From a virus (taxonomy: Duplodnaviria > Heunggongvirae > Uroviricota > Caudoviricetes): 6,048 bases of DNA. Below the pieces are notes generated by a model that ran no database searches, had not been told where the DNA came from, and saw nothing but the letters and a program-made list of their open reading frames with translations. A program made the translations under genes and the position numbers. Shown here piece after piece: positions 118 to 6,048 of the stretch. Every line of letters begins with the position of its first letter. Position 1 is the stretch's first letter. Where the stretch lies: IMG/VR virus record IMGVR_UViG_2675903562_000001, one strand, 5' to 3'.

Positions 118-645
118 TTATCCGGGATAAACAGTAATAACATCACCATCACAGACCACACCGCCTGTATACAGATAGCCTGGAATGTCCTGGATAATGT
201 TCAGGCCGATAAGGTGGCGACTTGCGGGTTTGGCATCGGCAATCAGCCGTTCCATTTCCAGATACATTTCCTCAGTCACGCCACTGTCCAGCGTGCCAAC
301 ATCAACCTTGAATGTTCCGGGTTCGCCGTCGAACTCCCACCACTCAGACACGCGAATGAGGTATCCCAGCGGCTCAATGGCCCGGCGCAATGCGCTGATG
401 GTCCCTTTGTGTCGGTGTATCAGCCATGCATCACGAATAACCTGTCGCTTTGTCTCTTCCGGCCAGTTGCGATCCCAGCGGTCAACGGAAAATGCCCAGG
501 CGAGATAAGGCAGCAGATGCACCGGGCAGGTGTCCGGTGACCACAGCGTGTTGAGGTCTACCGGGATGTTTGTAATGCGCGCTCCGACAGCTTCGGCGCA
601 ACGCATGAAATTGCTGGCTGATGGTGGTAACAGTGAATTACTCAT
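118..645 (-). CDS. I: Baseplate assembly protein I (175 aa)
   Basis: Sub-range of listed ORF 118..678. Preferred start is ATG at 645 with RBS AAGGTGG upstream; the ORF start at 678 is GTG with no RBS. Translation (MSNSLLPP...DGDVITVYPG) resembles P2 gpI along its length. Overlaps the J stop by 8 nt. Confidence 0.85.
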   Translation of the reverse strand: MSNSLLPPSASNFMRCAEAVGARITNIPVDLNTLWSPDTCPVHLLPYLAWAFSVDRWDRNWPEETKRQVIRDAWLIHRHKGTISALRRAIEPLGYLIRVSEWWEFDGEPGTFKVDVGTLDSGVTEEMYLEMERLIADAKPASRHLIGLNIIQDIPGYLYTGGVVCDGDVITVYPG

Positions 646-1534
646 TACGCCCACCTTCGCTGATGGTGAATGACTCACAGCGCGCCGCCTGTATGTCGCT
701 GATGGCCATATTCTGTGTGGGTTCGATTATCTCCACGCGTTGCACACCGTGCACATGCAGTGCGGCAGCAATGGCGGACAACGCCACGTCCTGACCGATA
801 AGCCCCTGCTCAGCCAGCCACTTCCTGAACGACGATTCAGCCGCAGCCAGAATAGGTTCGGATTCCGGGCCGGGATAAAAGTACAGTTTTGCATTCAGCC
901 GCCATGTCACGATTCTGGCACTCTGTACGGTCAGGCGGTCGGCCACCGGGCGGGTATCCTCTGCATTCAGAACGGCACGAACGGTATTAAGCAACGCCTC
1001 CGTTGCTGTGCCGTCGCCTTCAGTGGACAGGATGGAAACCGTCACGTTGGCCGGAGACGGACTGATAGCCCGCGCATCACGCACCAGACCGCTGGCGCTG
1101 CGGGCAAAATACTCGTATGCACCTGACGGGCCAGCAACACTCAGGCCGTCGTACGCCCGCTGCGCCCGCAGTCTCAGCGAGGTGTCACTCTCCATCACCG
1201 CGTCGGTGGTATCCGTTGCCGGAGTGATGGTCAGGCGCTTTGTGTTCATATTGCCCGCGAGGTTGTCCAGGTCTGTCCCGGTGCTGTGGCTTAACATGCA
1301 GGCCCGTGCCCCCTCATTGACCCGCTGGCGTAACAGCATTTCACGAAACGCTGTTGTCTGGGCGATAACGTTCAGGGGTTCCGATTCCAGCTCCAGCGCG
1401 GCGGAGACGGCTTCACGCTGTTCGGCGGGATAAGCCGCAATCATCATGGCCTTTGTGTCAGCCAGAATTGCCTCAAAATCAGGCTCCGCGATAATGGCGG
1501 GGTCCGGTAACTGGGAAAGGTCAACAGCAGGCAT
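638..1534 (-). CDS. J: Baseplate assembly protein J (298 aa)
   Basis: Listed ORF 638..1534. Translation (MPAVDLSQLP...ESEPL...RLTITPA...VADRLTVQSA...YPGPESEPI...HVHGVQRVE) matches P2 gpJ along its whole length from memory. Start is 3 nt after the W stop. Confidence 0.9.
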   Translation of the reverse strand: MPAVDLSQLPDPAIIAEPDFEAILADTKAMMIAAYPAEQREAVSAALELESEPLNVIAQTTAFREMLLRQRVNEGARACMLSHSTGTDLDNLAGNMNTKRLTITPATDTTDAVMESDTSLRLRAQRAYDGLSVAGPSGAYEYFARSASGLVRDARAISPSPANVTVSILSTEGDGTATEALLNTVRAVLNAEDTRPVADRLTVQSARIVTWRLNAKLYFYPGPESEPILAAAESSFRKWLAEQGLIGQDVALSAIAAALHVHGVQRVEIIEPTQNMAISDIQAARCESFTISEGGRNE

Positions 1535-1537
1535 GAT

Positions 1538-1888
1538 TTACTCTCTCAGCGTGATGGTTAATTCAACATTCTGCATGGTCTGCATGACAGTGCCCGACAG
1601 CGTCACCCCGGCGCGGCCTCCTGCCTTCCAGACAACGTCGATGGCATCCAGGGCAATGCGGGGTTCCCATCGCGTCAGTGCAATCACGGCAGCACTCATG
1701 CATTGCAGACGCGTGGTGTTATTCATGGGTTCGTCAATCAAATCAGGCACAAGGCTGCCATATTCCCGTCGCATAACCCGGCTGGCCAGCGGGGTGGTCA
1801 GGATGTCCCTGACTGACTGTTTCAGGTGCTCCGTATCGTTCAGGTTTCCCGTTCTGTCCGGGTTCATTCCTGTGTAGCGGGTTGTCAT
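1538..1888 (-). CDS. W: Baseplate protein W (gp25-like wedge protein, 116 aa)
   Basis: Listed ORF. Translation MTTRYTGMN...SRVMRREYGSL...WEPRI...VTLSG resembles P2 gpW. RBS AGGAGG 6 nt upstream. ATGA overlap with the V stop. Confidence 0.9.
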   Translation of the reverse strand: MTTRYTGMNPDRTGNLNDTEHLKQSVRDILTTPLASRVMRREYGSLVPDLIDEPMNNTTRLQCMSAAVIALTRWEPRIALDAIDVVWKAGGRAGVTLSGTVMQTMQNVELTITLRE

Positions 1889-2466
1889 TGCGGGCCTCCT
1901 GTCGAATCGCTGCCACCTTTAACGCCACCGTGTTTATGCGTATGCACTGTGATGCCGTTTGAGGTGAAATTGCCGCCGCTGTGCGTGATATTGCCGCTCA
2001 TCTTTCCCCCTTTTGTGACGTCAAGCGTCGCTGTTCTCAGAAGGTCTGTGCATTCCACGACGGGCGTGTCCAGTGTCACGCTGACGGATGCCTGCAGGGT
2101 GGCCGTTTTCATGCCGCTGGCGCTCAGTGCGCCTGCGTCCGCGTCGTAGCGGAACACCGCGCCATCCGGCGCGCTGATCACGATTTCTTTCAGGCTTTTG
2201 CCGGGGGCCGGACTGGCATCACTCCACAGGCTGCCAATTATCATGGCGGTTTCCGGGTTGCCGCCAATGCAGGCAATTGCCACCTGTTCGCCTGGTGATG
2301 GCGGCAGCCACACATTGAAGGCTCCCGCGCGCGTGGTGTTCCAGCGCAACCAGCCTGTTTCCAGTTCGCCGCTGCGAACGCGCACGCGCCAGGACTTCTC
2401 ATCAACTTCAGAGATGATCCCGGTACGGATGATATTGCTCAGCAGTCGCATGAGTTCTGCGCTCAC
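1885..2466 (-). CDS. V: Baseplate spike/hub protein V (193 aa)
   Basis: Listed ORF with GTG start at 2466 preceded by RBS GGAGG at 7 nt spacing. Translation (…IRTGII.EVD…WL.W…RAG…GEQV…PDGA…TLD.P.V.CT…TL.V.KGG.M.GNI.H.GG…SNG…HTHKH) is typical of P2 gpV. Confidence 0.85.
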   Translation of the reverse strand: MSAELMRLLSNIIRTGIISEVDEKSWRVRVRSGELETGWLRWNTTRAGAFNVWLPPSPGEQVAIACIGGNPETAMIIGSLWSDASPAPGKSLKEIVISAPDGAVFRYDADAGALSASGMKTATLQASVSVTLDTPVVECTDLLRTATLDVTKGGKMSGNITHSGGNFTSNGITVHTHKHGGVKGGSDSTGGPQ

Positions 2467-2573
2467 CGTACAGCCTCCGCAATCCGGCCCAGCACCGTGT
2501 TATAAATCAGGCGCTCATCTGTCTGGCTGATACCCAGCAGCTCACGTGCCGGGTACCCCGGCGCTGATAATAT
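2463..2573 (-). pseudogene. Orphan open frame of 36 codons with no start codon (ILSAPGYPARELLGISQTDERLIYNTVLGRIAEAVR); likely the displaced C-terminus of the upstream lysis gene or a remnant of a deleted tail completion gene
   Basis: Minus-strand frame open from 2573 to a TGA at 2465..2463 that overlaps the V start (GTGA coupling). It is +1 relative to the Rz-like ORF, which stops at 2544..2542. No ATG/GTG/TTG start with an RBS inside it. Confidence 0.35.
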
Positions 2574-2718
2574 TCAGGGTGTCGGCGGTACTTTTCAGGG
2601 TGCTGGCCTGCGCTTCGTTTCTGGCGTTCTCCCGGCCCAGCGACCACGACAGACGCATGGATGTTCCCCATCCAGCAATCAGAAGGAAAGCGACGCCCAG
2701 CGTGGGCCAGAGCTTCAT
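2542..2718 (-). CDS. Small membrane lysis protein, Rz/LysB-like (i-spanin-like) N-terminal portion, 58 aa, apparently truncated by a frameshift
   Basis: Sub-range of ORF 2542..2862. ATG at 2718 in ATGA overlap with the endolysin stop. N-terminal hydrophobic segment MKLWPTLGVAFLLIAGW followed by a charged, Ala/Gln-rich stretch. Position after holin and endolysin matches lysB in P2. Ends prematurely at 2542, after which the frame shifts. Confidence 0.4.
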   Translation of the reverse strand: MKLWPTLGVAFLLIAGWGTSMRLSWSLGRENARNEAQASTLKSTADTLNIISAGVPGT

Positions 2719-3107
2719 GCCGGATAGGCTCCGTGTGGTAACTGAAAATGCGGTCCGTCTTTCAGGGTCTTCCAGTCGCCGCCCCATTCCACCGGAATAT
2801 TCAGTTCCCGGCTGGCCTGTCTGAATGCTGCTGCGATTTTTTCGTACAGCGGCCATTCCCATGACACCTGGCTGCCGATATAAGCCACAACATCCACGGC
2901 ATGTCCCGTAAGGTGGCGGCTGTTCATGGTCTGGCTCTTACCCGTGGCCACCAGTTGCTTCTGGTGGTAACGGCTGCGCAACCCTTCGGTGATACCAAAA
3001 TCCACTTCCGAAATTTCCAGTGCCCGTCGGGTCACTTTCACCAGATCAGGATTTACGCCCTGCAAATTCTTTTCGCTCCGGCTGCTGAATTTAAATGTGT
3101 TGCTCAT
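2715..3107 (-). CDS. Endolysin, peptidase M15 (VanY / L-alanyl-D-glutamate peptidase-like) family, 130 aa
   Basis: Listed ORF. RBS AAGGAG upstream and ATGA overlap with the holin stop. Contains SRHLTGHAVD and a C-terminal GPHFQLPHG, consistent with the His/Asp/His zinc-binding arrangement of M15-family cell-wall peptidases such as the T5-type endolysin. Sits in the endolysin position directly after the holin. Confidence 0.8.
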   Translation of the reverse strand: MSNTFKFSSRSEKNLQGVNPDLVKVTRRALEISEVDFGITEGLRSRYHQKQLVATGKSQTMNSRHLTGHAVDVVAYIGSQVSWEWPLYEKIAAAFRQASRELNIPVEWGGDWKTLKDGPHFQLPHGAYPA

Positions 3108-3427
3108 TCGTCCTTCTCCTTCACCCTGCGATTAAAGGCTGCAATAACCTTGTCGCGTGCTTTCTCTGCGCCCATAAAACCGATTGATGCGCCGATAAAC
3201 GTCACGGCATCTTCAGGAAAACCGAAGAAGCGCAACGATCCGGCCACGGCCATGGCAAGAACGCCGCACGCCAGCGATCCCGTTACGGTCTGAACCAGTG
3301 TTCGTCCGTCATAAAGACTCATCAGCGCGGAAATGCTGACCGCCGCGCCTACTGCATACACCGTTGGCAGGTGGTCAAAGAGCCACGCAATAACCTGCTC
3401 TGTGATCCCTGTTTGAATGGTGCTCAC
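3104..3427 (-). CDS. Class I holin, lambda S-like (107 aa)
   Basis: Sub-range of ORF 3104..3646 (the long N-terminal extension overlaps X and is rejected). GTG start at 3427 with RBS GGGGGAG upstream, overlapping the X stop. Three hydrophobic segments and a charged C-terminal tail (EKARDKVIAAFNRRVKEKDE). The segment FIGASIGFMGAEKARDKVIAAF resembles the lambda S C-terminal region. Confidence 0.65.
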   Translation of the reverse strand: MSTIQTGITEQVIAWLFDHLPTVYAVGAAVSISALMSLYDGRTLVQTVTGSLACGVLAMAVAGSLRFFGFPEDAVTFIGASIGFMGAEKARDKVIAAFNRRVKEKDE

Positions 3428-3429
3428 TG

Positions 3430-3630
3430 CTACTCCCCCCACAACTGAATCATTTCTCGTTTCTTCTTCTCCGGCTCCGGCATCTCCACTTCCTGCCCGG
3501 CGTCCAGAAATACCTGCTGACAGAGTCCGGGGTTGGCATCCAGCACCTTTTCGGTGACGCCCTGCGTCGTGCCGTAGTACCGGAAACAGAGCGAATCCAC
3601 GGTGTCGCCTTCCAGTACCTTCACTTTCAT
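3430..3630 (-). CDS. X: Tail protein X (LysM-like, 66 aa)
   Basis: Sub-range of ORF 3430..3663; ATG at 3630 in ATGA overlap with the L stop. Translation MKVKVLEGDTVDSLCFRYYGTTQGVTEKVLDANPGL matches P2 gpX (…GDTLD..C.RYYG.T.GV.E.VL.ANPGL). Confidence 0.8.
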   Translation of the reverse strand: MKVKVLEGDTVDSLCFRYYGTTQGVTEKVLDANPGLCQQVFLDAGQEVEMPEPEKKKREMIQLWGE

Positions 3631-4124
3631 CAGCACAACTCCGCAAAGATTCGCGGGCGGCACAGAATGTCAGAGATGGCCCAGCTCACATCACGCCACA
3701 AATCCGATGTCTGTATATCCAGTGCGTCCGCCCGGCGGTCGCCCTTGTCCGTTGTGTCCGCATCGCGGTAACGCTCCAGTATCAGGGCGCGTGTGGCGGT
3801 ATAAACAGCATTGCGCCAGTGCCAGAGATTGACGCTTTCTCCGTTAATTGCGGGTGCCGGAACATCGGCCAGCGTCTGATGGCCAGCTGCCTGCTGTTCC
3901 TGCTGCCATGCTTCCAGCTCGCGGGTAACGTGTGCCACAGCCCCGGTGGCAGTATGCAGCAGGCGGGAGGTGGTCACGCGGCCCGGCAGTCGTACCGCCA
4001 GACGCAGCTCGCGCAGCACAATATCCGGCCAGAATGCACCCGCTGAAATGCGGGTATCGCCATCATCGGTATCGGTGATGTCGTCCTCTGCGGGTCCGGG
4101 TTCAGTTCTGGCAACCATACTCAT
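3630..4124 (-). CDS. L: Head completion/stabilization protein L (164 aa)
   Basis: Sub-range of ORF 3630..4133; ATG at 4124 preceded by RBS AGGAG at 8 nt spacing. Translation contains F.PDI…LADVPA…GES…ERYR…DKGD.RAD…LWRD..WA, matching P2 gpL as recalled. Confidence 0.85.
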   Translation of the reverse strand: MSMVARTEPGPAEDDITDTDDGDTRISAGAFWPDIVLRELRLAVRLPGRVTTSRLLHTATGAVAHVTRELEAWQQEQQAAGHQTLADVPAPAINGESVNLWHWRNAVYTATRALILERYRDADTTDKGDRRADALDIQTSDLWRDVSWAISDILCRPRIFAELC

Positions 4125-4138
4125 GGGGTTCACTCCTG

Positions 4139-4209
4139 AAAAAAATCGGGCGGTGGGTGCGCGGTGTAAACGGTCACGGAGTCAAACCGGAACACCGCGC
4201 ACGCCGCCC
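4139..4209 (-). terminator. Putative rho-independent terminator (or attenuator) on the minus strand between O-like and L
   Basis: Minus-strand sense reads GGGCGGCGTGCGCGGTGT, a 24-nt loop, ACACCGCGCACCCACCGCCC, then GATTTTTTT. This is an imperfect GC-rich stem of about 17 bp followed by a T7 run, immediately upstream of the L RBS. Confidence 0.45.
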
Positions 4210-4219
4210 GCTGACGGGG

Positions 4220-4807
4220 TCAGTCGTTAATCCCCATTACGCGGTTAAACCACTGGGTGCCTTCTTCCTGGCGTTGTTCTGCCATTTCGATGATTTCAGA
4301 CTCGATGGCTTCGGAAATGAGCGGTGCTTCACCCTGGACACTGTTGAACGTCATCACCGCCTGACGCTGCTGTGCCGTGAATTTCAGGCGCTCAGTGCCC
4401 AGGCTTGCCGGGGTGTCGGTCATCGCCAGCCCGACCAGATAGGCGCGCCCGTTAACGGAGAACTGCGGGTGCAGTTCGATACTGGAATAGATTTTCTTGC
4501 CGTCCGCGACAAGCTGCTTCATGCGCTCGGTCGGTTCGATTTCTGCATACAGCGCAGTACGTCCGGCCAGCGGACCTTCCGTAATGTCTTCCGTACTCAG
4601 TGCGGTGACATCGCCCATTGCGGAAAATTCGCTTGACGGGCATGGCGAGAGATAGTGCTCAACGTTCACGCGGGCAGCGTAAACATCCGGGTTGAAGTTC
4701 TCGGCGGCTTCACGCAGATGCACCGGACTGATTTCACGGCCATCAACAGTTGATCCGGAGACAGCCACGCGAAACTTTTTGCGGGATGTCTTTTTTTCAT
4801 TAGCCAT
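4220..4807 (-). CDS. O: gpO-like capsid maturation protease domain (195 aa), short relative to P2 gpO; C-terminal scaffolding region apparently absent
   Basis: Sub-range of ORF 4220..4840; ATG at 4807 with RBS GAGGGG upstream. Translation (…FRVAVSG.TVDGR.IS…NVEH…YSSIEL.PQF…YLVGLAMTDTPASLGTE…) matches the N-terminal protease part of P2 gpO, including candidate catalytic His about 51 and Ser about 108. It ends roughly 55 residues after the PASLGTE motif, whereas P2 gpO is about 284 aa by recollection. Confidence 0.7.
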   Translation of the reverse strand: MANEKKTSRKKFRVAVSGSTVDGREISPVHLREAAENFNPDVYAARVNVEHYLSPCPSSEFSAMGDVTALSTEDITEGPLAGRTALYAEIEPTERMKQLVADGKKIYSSIELHPQFSVNGRAYLVGLAMTDTPASLGTERLKFTAQQRQAVMTFNSVQGEAPLISEAIESEIIEMAEQRQEEGTQWFNRVMGIND

Positions 4808-4961
4808 AGTTTTTGCCCCTCTGACTGGTTCTTCAGTCATGATGGCAAAGCGTAACAGGCTGATACAAAGGGCTTTTGTTGTAAGAAAACGGCCAGAACA
4901 GGGGGTTAAGGAGAACGGTTTCGCGCGCGGGTAATCTTCCTGTAATTACTCAGGGGGAGCA
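4808..4961. promoter_or_regulatory. Divergent intergenic region between O-like (minus) and terminase P (plus); expected site of the two divergent late promoters
   Basis: 154-bp non-coding gap between divergently oriented genes, as in the P2 P|O late-promoter region. Contains an imperfect dyad TGT-N12-AGA (4880..4897) that only partly matches the Ogr/Delta-type TGT-N12-ACA element, and a palindrome ACAAAGGGCTTTTGT (4865..4879). No clear sigma70 -35/-10 pair identified. Confidence 0.3.
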
Positions 4962-6048
4962 ATGATTCAGGACGCTTTTGTGCGCCAGCGTGCGCGGCAA
5001 CTTTACTGGCAGGGTTATCCGCCCGCAGAAATATCACGTCTGATGGGAATAAACCCGAACACGATTTATGCGTGGAAAAAACGCGACCAGTGGGATGAAA
5101 CGCCACCCGTGCAGCGTGTCACGCAGTCCATCGATGCGCGCCTCATCCAGCTTACTGAAAAACAGAATAAAACAGGTGGTGACTTTAAGGAAATAGACCT
5201 GCTGACCCGGCAGCTTAAAAAACTGCATGATGGCCAGCCGGATGCGACGGCCACAGGAAAGAAAGGCCGGGCGAAAAAACTTAAAAATCATTTCACGCCG
5301 GAGCAGATTGCCGCACTGCGGGAAAAAATCATCAGCAGGCTGGAGTGGCATCAGCGGGGCTGGTTTGACTCCCTGAGCCTTTGCAGGGAAGCCGGGATAC
5401 GTAACAGGATGATCCTGAAATCCCGACAGATTGGGGCGACCTGGTATTTTGCACAGGAAGCACTGCTGATGGCGCTGCGTGACGATGTGGCACAACCTTA
5501 CCAGCGTAACCAGATTTTTTTGTCTGCGTCGCGTCGTCAGGCGTTCCAGTTTAAAAGCATTATTCAGAAGGCCGCGGCTGAAGTTGATGTGGAGCTGAAA
5601 GGGGGCGATAAAATCATCCTCTCCAACGGCGCAGAACTGCATTTTCTCGGTACTTCTGCTGCGACGGCACAGTCCTACACAGGCAATTTTTATTTTGATG
5701 AATTTTTCTGGGTCAGTCGCTTTGCTGAACTGCGCAAGGTGGCTGGCGCTATGGCAACCCTCAGCGGGCTGCGACGCACCTACTTCTCCACGCCATCCAC
5801 CGAAACGCACGAGGCATACGTCTACTGGAACGGCGACCGCTGGAACGAGAAAAAGGCCGCGCATAAACGCCAGCGTTTTTCTGTGGACTGGAAAACGCTG
5901 CATAACGGGCTTATCTGCCCCGACCGGACGTGGCGGCAAATTGTCACGCTGGAAGATGTGGTTAATCACGGCTGGAAACACACCGATATTGACGAAATTC
6001 GTGATGAAAACACCGAAGACGAGTTCCGCAATCTCTATATGTGTGAGT
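4962..6048 (+). CDS. P: Terminase large (ATPase) subunit, gpP-like, N-terminal 362 codons (continues beyond window end)
   Basis: I translated this frame by hand from the ATG at 4962 and it stays open to the window end; it is not in the ORF track, presumably because it has no stop within the window. G-rich RBS immediately upstream. N-terminus looks HTH-like (YWQGYPPAEISRLMGINPNTIYAWKK). Contains ILKSRQIGATWYFAQEAL and a Walker-B-like NFYFDEFFWV. Divergent orientation from O matches P2. Confidence 0.75.
   Translation, partial: MIQDAFVRQRARQLYWQGYPPAEISRLMGINPNTIYAWKKRDQWDETPPVQRVTQSIDARLIQLTEKQNKTGGDFKEIDLLTRQLKKLHDGQPDATATGKKGRAKKLKNHFTPEQIAALREKIISRLEWHQRGWFDSLSLCREAGIRNRMILKSRQIGATWYFAQEALLMALRDDVAQPYQRNQIFLSASRRQAFQFKSIIQKAAAEVDVELKGGDKIILSNGAELHFLGTSAATAQSYTGNFYFDEFFWVSRFAELRKVAGAMATLSGLRRTYFSTPSTETHEAYVYWNGDRWNEKKAAHKRQRFSVDWKTLHNGLICPDRTWRQIVTLEDVVNHGWKHTDIDEIRDENTEDEFRNLYMCE

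Follow-up and report, generated by a model that had tools for sequence, protein, structure and literature searches.

The closest described relatives of the prophage fragment considered here are two intact phages, P88 (NC_026014, Xuanwuvirus P88, Peduoviridae) and PhiR44_2 (PV340564), in which the genes Q and P are divergent from a long late series that reads O-N-M-L-X-holin-endolysin-lysB-lysC-R-S-V-W-J-I-H. Two other kinds of element bear a superficial likeness to it, namely P2-type tail and lysis genes with the capsid gene absent: R-type tailocins, which are devoid of head genes and keep a complete tail with a terminator, and phage satellites (P4-like or PICI-like), which are small (~10-15 kb in the P4-like case) and hold few structural genes along with dedicated helper-exploitation genes. 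In P2, the internal protease and scaffold gpO comprises a protease at residues 1-141, a stretch at residues 142-194 that may bind the portal, and a C-terminal scaffolding domain at residues 195-284 (PMC7552001); S107 is the site of the protease-dead mutant S107A (PMC7552001).

Using a comparison with these systems, we have analysed a stretch of 6,048 nucleotides (the window) in which a short gpO-like gene, here called O', is followed directly by L, with neither N nor M between them. We conclude that the missing genes were very probably lost by simple deletion, and hence by ordinary decay, from a P88-like prophage (Xuanwuvirus, P2 family) that one E. coli lineage carries in defective form. Defective prophages are a known kind of element, and the truncated protein itself is already in public databases.

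Gene content of the window and its intact relatives

The features of the window are as follows, in order of position:

107-3, minus strand: tail fibre gene H, first 35 codons
118-645, minus strand: gpI, baseplate, intact
638-1534, minus strand: gpJ, baseplate, intact
1538-1888, minus strand: gpW, baseplate, intact
1885-2466, minus strand: gpV, baseplate spike, intact
2463-2555, minus strand: gpS remnant, last 31 codons only
2553-2555: junction of deletion A, with a 3-bp GTA microhomology
2542-2718, minus strand: truncated lysB (DUF2570, Rz-like spanin), 58 aa, made of ~55 of 135 residues, 3 out-of-frame codons and a stop
2715-3107, minus strand: M15 endolysin, intact, 130 aa (PF13539; 99.2% identity)
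3104-3427, minus strand: holin, intact, 107 aa (PF05106; 100% identity)
3430-3630, minus strand: gpX, tail protein, intact, 66 aa (PF05489; 97% identity)
3630-4124, minus strand: gpL, head completion protein, intact, 164 aa (PF05926; 97.6% identity to the PhiR44_2 protein over its full length)
4125-4219, minus strand: former M-L intergenic region, now O'-L, with a hairpin, U7 and the gpL ribosome-binding site
4228-4230: junction of deletion B, with a 3-bp TAA microhomology
4220-4807, minus strand: O', gpO-like, 195 aa, with a homologue-supported start at 4807 and its stop at 4220-4222
4962-6048, plus strand: large terminase gpP, N-terminal 362 aa, running past the window end

In a megablast against phage genomes, PhiR44_2 matched 100% of the window at 98% identity and P88 covered 99% of it at 97% identity. 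The matches fall into three colinear pieces, each 94-99% identical to P88 and PhiR44_2, so arranged that 9.6 kb of phage sequence correspond to the 6.0 kb of the window, with two clean gaps outside which identity to both intact genomes is 97-99%. In the annotation of the phages, one gap holds N, M and the 3' end of O, whose product has 278 aa in these genomes, and the other holds R, most of S, the lysC-like gene and the 3' part of DUF2570/lysB. The window therefore differs from P88 and PhiR44_2, whose gene order it otherwise shares, by the absence of 2,174 bp (deletion B) and 1,382 bp (deletion A). It shows the identity and colinearity of a Xuanwuvirus prophage and lacks the complete O-N-M-L head operon of one; with N and M missing and O cut short, it counts as a defective derivative rather than a functional member of the group.

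Outside the two gaps the sequence is very clean. The remaining genes are full length and encode proteins 97-100% identical to the phage versions, no frameshift or stop codon interrupts 13 other prophage genes, and beyond the deletions a single indel occurs, an additional base at 4139 in a homopolymer run between genes. The preliminary description had called P, L and X intact, which holds for L and X at 97-100% identity and for P over the 362 aa in the window, gpP being 583 aa long in related loci. The open reading frame of the gpO-like gene extends over 4220-4840 (minus strand) and thus encloses the start at 4807 that homologues support.

Deletion B and the truncated gpO

Measured against PhiR44_2 and P88, deletion B takes N and M in their entirety together with gpO residues 194-278. 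The blastn pieces abut at window positions 4228-4230, equivalent to positions 7114 and 9289 of locus L001, and a comparison of the phage flanks finds only TAA in common. The endpoints, whose mapping against intact relatives had been proposed at the outset, are thus resolved to the base: the deletion fuses gpO codon 193/194 to the M stop codon, and the last two residues of O' (N and D) and its stop are read in another frame across that former stop codon. Only 95 bp separate the O' stop from the gpL start, just as the preliminary description had it when it placed an O-like gene directly before L with no N or M. With the N and M proteins of PhiR44_2 as queries, tblastn found no match in the window or in 15 related loci, each of up to 20 kb, which bears out their absence by a check of the kind that had been suggested.

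Residues 1-193 of O', encompassing the protease domain and the middle region, are 99.5% identical to residues 1-193 of PhiR44_2 gpO. With its 195 aa, O' falls well short of the 284 aa of P2 gpO and the 278 aa of the P88 and PhiR44_2 proteins, and the difference of about 90 residues from P2 noted earlier is correct. The Pfam family Phage_GPO (PF05929) matches O' with E = 2e-71 (241 bits) over only positions 2-183 of its 268, whereas it covers 2-267 in PhiR44_2 gpO, and in an alignment with P2 gpO the truncated protein ends at about P2 residue 189. The columns of P2 residues D19, H48 and S107, which we take to be the full catalytic triad, are invariant in the alignment and are kept in O'; the identity of the full triad of P2 gpO was reportedly given by Chang et al. 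in 2009. O' accordingly resembles P2 gpO in its N-terminal protease domain and middle region and differs from it in having no scaffolding domain (P2 195-284), which is needed for procapsid assembly, and in having lost the substrate gpN as well. The view that the protease core was kept and the capsid-binding scaffold lost is therefore upheld.

O' could in principle belong to a natural lineage of short gpO proteins, in which a protease-only O works with an alternative capsid module. Its 90%-identity cluster does contain many members of 140-251 aa, but most of the short members listed are labelled 'partial' by their source. The closest phage records have a gpO of 278 aa, rather than the ~195 aa that a natural short form would call for, and it is 99.5% identical to O' over the shared part; two out-of-frame codons from the M stop region end O', and in the related loci the 10 kb to either side of the truncated lysB gene (lysB') contain no homologue of N or M. 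Such a lineage is, in our judgement, hardly credible. The shape of O' is an accident of where the deletion starts and not that of a designed protein. It has no match to a defence family in a PADLOC search, is identical to ESS95454.1 of E. coli CE549, and is best annotated as a gpO pseudogene fragment, with the element as a whole annotated as a defective P88-like prophage.

Deletion A, tail terminators and lysis genes

Deletion A spans 1,382 bp and takes the 3' part of lysB, the lysC-like gene, R and codons 1-180 of S; its flanks have only GTA in common. The remnant lysB' falls in a 90%-identity cluster of 135-aa DUF2570 proteins. For neither gap did a repeat search reveal long repeats able to mediate the deletions, and the 3-bp overlaps point to a microhomology-mediated mechanism. 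Deletion A sits outside the coordinates treated in the preliminary description and was missed there.

P2 mutants in R and S produce tails whose tubes or sheaths are too long, and the R2 pyocin is among the contractile machines that have a tail-terminator homologue (PMC11784142). The earlier suggestion that the element supplies tails and lysis stands in part: holin and endolysin are intact, but the spanins and the terminators R and S are lost.

A separate deletion lies in strain AST85 (L020 7209-7928), where it runs from S into the M15 endolysin gene, both of which are marked as pseudogenes. In H138, a different genome, the features under the match suggest an N-to-I junction. In these two cases, prophages of the type considered here have independently undergone deletions that differ in extent.

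Recurrence and clonality

Intact O-N-M-L is the norm in E. coli. About 1,080 of 5,426 complete genomes carry this prophage type, and a query made of intact L-M-N-O is found to at least 80% in one place in 1,043 of the 1,135 E. coli genomes that it matches. A junction-spanning megablast found neither junction spanned in the 5,426 complete RefSeq E. coli genomes, and the 24-nt O'/M junction has no exact match in GTDB at one genome per species, a negative result that fits a strain-level event inside E. coli.

The junctions are nevertheless not confined to the window. An exact-protein look-up places O' in 31 collection blocks and the lysB' fusion in 36, the two occur together on a 4.87-Mb contig, and the junction-bearing element is present in dozens of assemblies and metagenomes. 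Of the 15 copies fetched, 14 agree with the window at 100% wherever the two overlap and the remaining one has 4 mismatches, whereas the nearest intact phages diverge from it by 2-3%. Because the fetched copies are nearly identical, we infer that the junctions arose once and that their recurrence reflects clonal inheritance rather than convergence. The carriers, judged by their sequences, probably constitute one clone.

An independent recurrence of the architecture, with other backbones or junctions, did not appear among the 15 fetched copies, the 5,426 genomes and the GTDB species scan. The possibility raised at the outset, that the same architecture recurs in unrelated strains, thus found no support, the copies being clonal and the complete E. 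coli genomes yielding none.

As many carriers are short-read draft contigs, collapsed or chimeric assemblies could be imagined to have produced false junctions. Against such an artefact, the same junctions recur in independent NCBI, ENA metagenome and Logan assemblies made by different pipelines, as well as in the 4.87-Mb contig, and an overlap of 3 bp is far too short for assembly collapse; we give an assembly or sequencing error next to no weight.

A third deletion in a sub-lineage

In the loci L004-L010, the O'/M junction is present and the match to the window extends only down to position 4052. When L004 and L005 are aligned with L013, a third deletion becomes apparent: 6,258 bp are gone between about gpL codon 25 and a point within the tail fibre gene H, and with them X, the lysis genes, the junction of deletion A and the whole baseplate. 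The junction of this third deletion lies at L004 9627-9632 with a 6-bp overlap, the rest being 100% identical, and it yields an open reading frame of 136 aa that fuses L' to H'.

One of the loci with the third deletion, L008 (GCA_000497015.1, contig KI544479), is probably the CE549 assembly. CE549 is an ETEC clinical isolate of ST4 with the colonisation factors CS2/CS3/CS21 (PMC4415261), and three of four strains, CE549 included, fall into two major globally distributed ETEC lineages (PMC4415261). The three nested deletions offer clean lineage markers for the carrier ETEC clone.

Cargo and retained genes

The related loci retain A, ParM/StbB, Q, P, L, X, the lysis genes, the baseplate and fibre genes, U, T and E, colinear with P88. 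Between the ParM/StbB partition genes and the portal gene Q they carry an IetAS defence system (L013 1172-4455), composed of IetA, an AAA ATPase (E = 2.5e-89), and IetS, an S8 peptidase (E = 5.7e-41); P88 has other small genes in this slot. The related loci also differ from P88 in having another tail fibre, and, these differences in cargo and tail fibre aside, the element is colinear with a P88-type genome in all stretches that were fetched.

A gene for a hexapeptide-repeat acetyltransferase lies between the tail fibre assembly gene and gpU (L013 15850-16395, minus strand; L020 1732-2277) and is annotated as a serine acetyltransferase in AST85. P88 has an invertible tail-fibre cassette where the acetyltransferase sits in L013. 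The enzyme may be lysogenic-conversion cargo.

Comparison with tailocins, satellites and cryptic prophages

The preliminary description left two readings side by side, a deletion in a decaying prophage and a deliberate architecture. An adaptive or domesticated element, whether helper-dependent and satellite-like, a tailocin-like producer or a safe carrier of defence cargo, would account for its presence in dozens of assemblies and metagenomes, for the intact state of the remaining genes and for the IetAS cargo, and the retention of A, Q and P makes trans-complementation by a superinfecting relative conceivable. Set against this, the near-identity of the fetched copies speaks for clonal inheritance and not for convergence, and the architecture occurs in none of the 5,426 complete E. 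coli genomes. A producer of tails would be ill served by the deletion of R and S, whose loss gives over-long tails in P2, and by disrupted spanins, and the sub-lineage that has shed the stretch from L to H, baseplate included, gives no sign that tail function is under constraint.

The comparison with known elements leads the same way. R-type tailocins have no head genes and a complete tail with its terminator; our element still has Q, P, L and O' among its head genes and has R and S deleted, and we know of no tailocin that retains these head genes. The element is phage-sized, its gene set is that of a phage and colinear with P88, no extra gene lies at the deletion site, and no capsid-redirecting or helper-exploiting gene is seen in the window or the related loci, all of which sets it apart from satellites. 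Unlike R-type tailocins and P4-type satellites, it keeps the portal, large terminase, gpL and gene A, and it has lost R, S and the spanins. Given these losses, the single origin of the junctions, the further decay in a sub-lineage and the intact norm, the deliberate architecture finds no support, and we regard an adaptive element as improbable.

A narrower form of the idea holds that an IetAS-carrying, still inducible prophage that makes no virions is selectively retained in an ETEC lineage of global distribution and might be rescued by a P88-like helper that provides O, N, M, R and S. If true, this would be a satellite in the making, mobilised by superinfecting P88-like helpers; we rate its chances slightly lower still.

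Prophage decay is the reading that the mapped endpoints and the intact relatives support. The element shares with the cryptic prophages of E. coli internal microhomology deletions, vertical inheritance, stepwise loss and the keeping of cargo, and differs from them in nothing of substance, except that it is young and its remaining genes are intact. Some observations weigh against decay. The remaining genes are so clean that a recently selected architecture would look alike; both deletions in the window strike late morphogenesis functions and spare holin, endolysin, Q, P, L and the genes of tail structure; and IetAS could favour the keeping of a non-lytic version.

A stepwise route of decay

We propose the following sequence of events for the decay of the prophage:

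(i) Illegitimate recombination at TAA would have deleted 2,174 bp, from gpO codon 193/194 to the M stop codon. The O' reading frame would be a by-product of this event, closed by two extra codons and a stop.

(ii) A second event of the same kind at GTA would have removed 1,382 bp, and with them R, S and the spanin genes.

(iii) A sub-lineage would later have lost a further 6,258 bp, reaching from within L to within H, in a third deletion.

(iv) The deletions are probably recent and have persisted by vertical inheritance, and the architecture itself is likely not under selection.

(v) What is left over would be a non-productive prophage with replication, portal, large terminase, holin/endolysin and tail structural genes and its cargo.

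The functional consequences can be predicted from the established biology of P2. The lack of gpN and of the gpO scaffold should preclude procapsids, and the lack of gpM a terminase holoenzyme; absent gpR and gpS, termination of tube and sheath is expected to fail, and absent lysB and lysC, no spanins should be made. The element has thus probably lost the ability to build capsids, to cut and package DNA and to finish tails. It represents a tidy natural case of stepwise prophage decay by short-microhomology deletion with IetAS intact, and matters little beyond annotation.

Regulatory and RNA features

A consensus scan for sigma-70 promoters and terminators over positions 2400-5000 yielded nothing above shuffled expectation, and it missed the hairpin described below. 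The activator motif of the P2 Ogr type is TGT-N12-ACA, of which there is no exact copy in the window, including the divergent P/O region at 4808-4961; P88-like phages may activate their late genes through a variant of it.

The M-L intergenic region, which now separates O' from L, is unchanged from that of the intact phage except for the one additional homopolymer base. It contains a long and very stable hairpin at window positions 4134-4210 on the minus strand (-50.6 kcal/mol, z = -6.35), after which come U7 and the ribosome-binding site of gpL. The hairpin belongs to no Rfam family, with only a chance, sub-threshold miRNA match at E ≤ 1, and is unannotated in the P2 record. P2 has a hairpin at the same place (L019 5922-5985; -47.6 kcal/mol, z = -4.2), in which the outer stem is alike and the inner sequence differs. 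The M-L hairpin could serve as a terminator or attenuator, or as an RNA-stability element.
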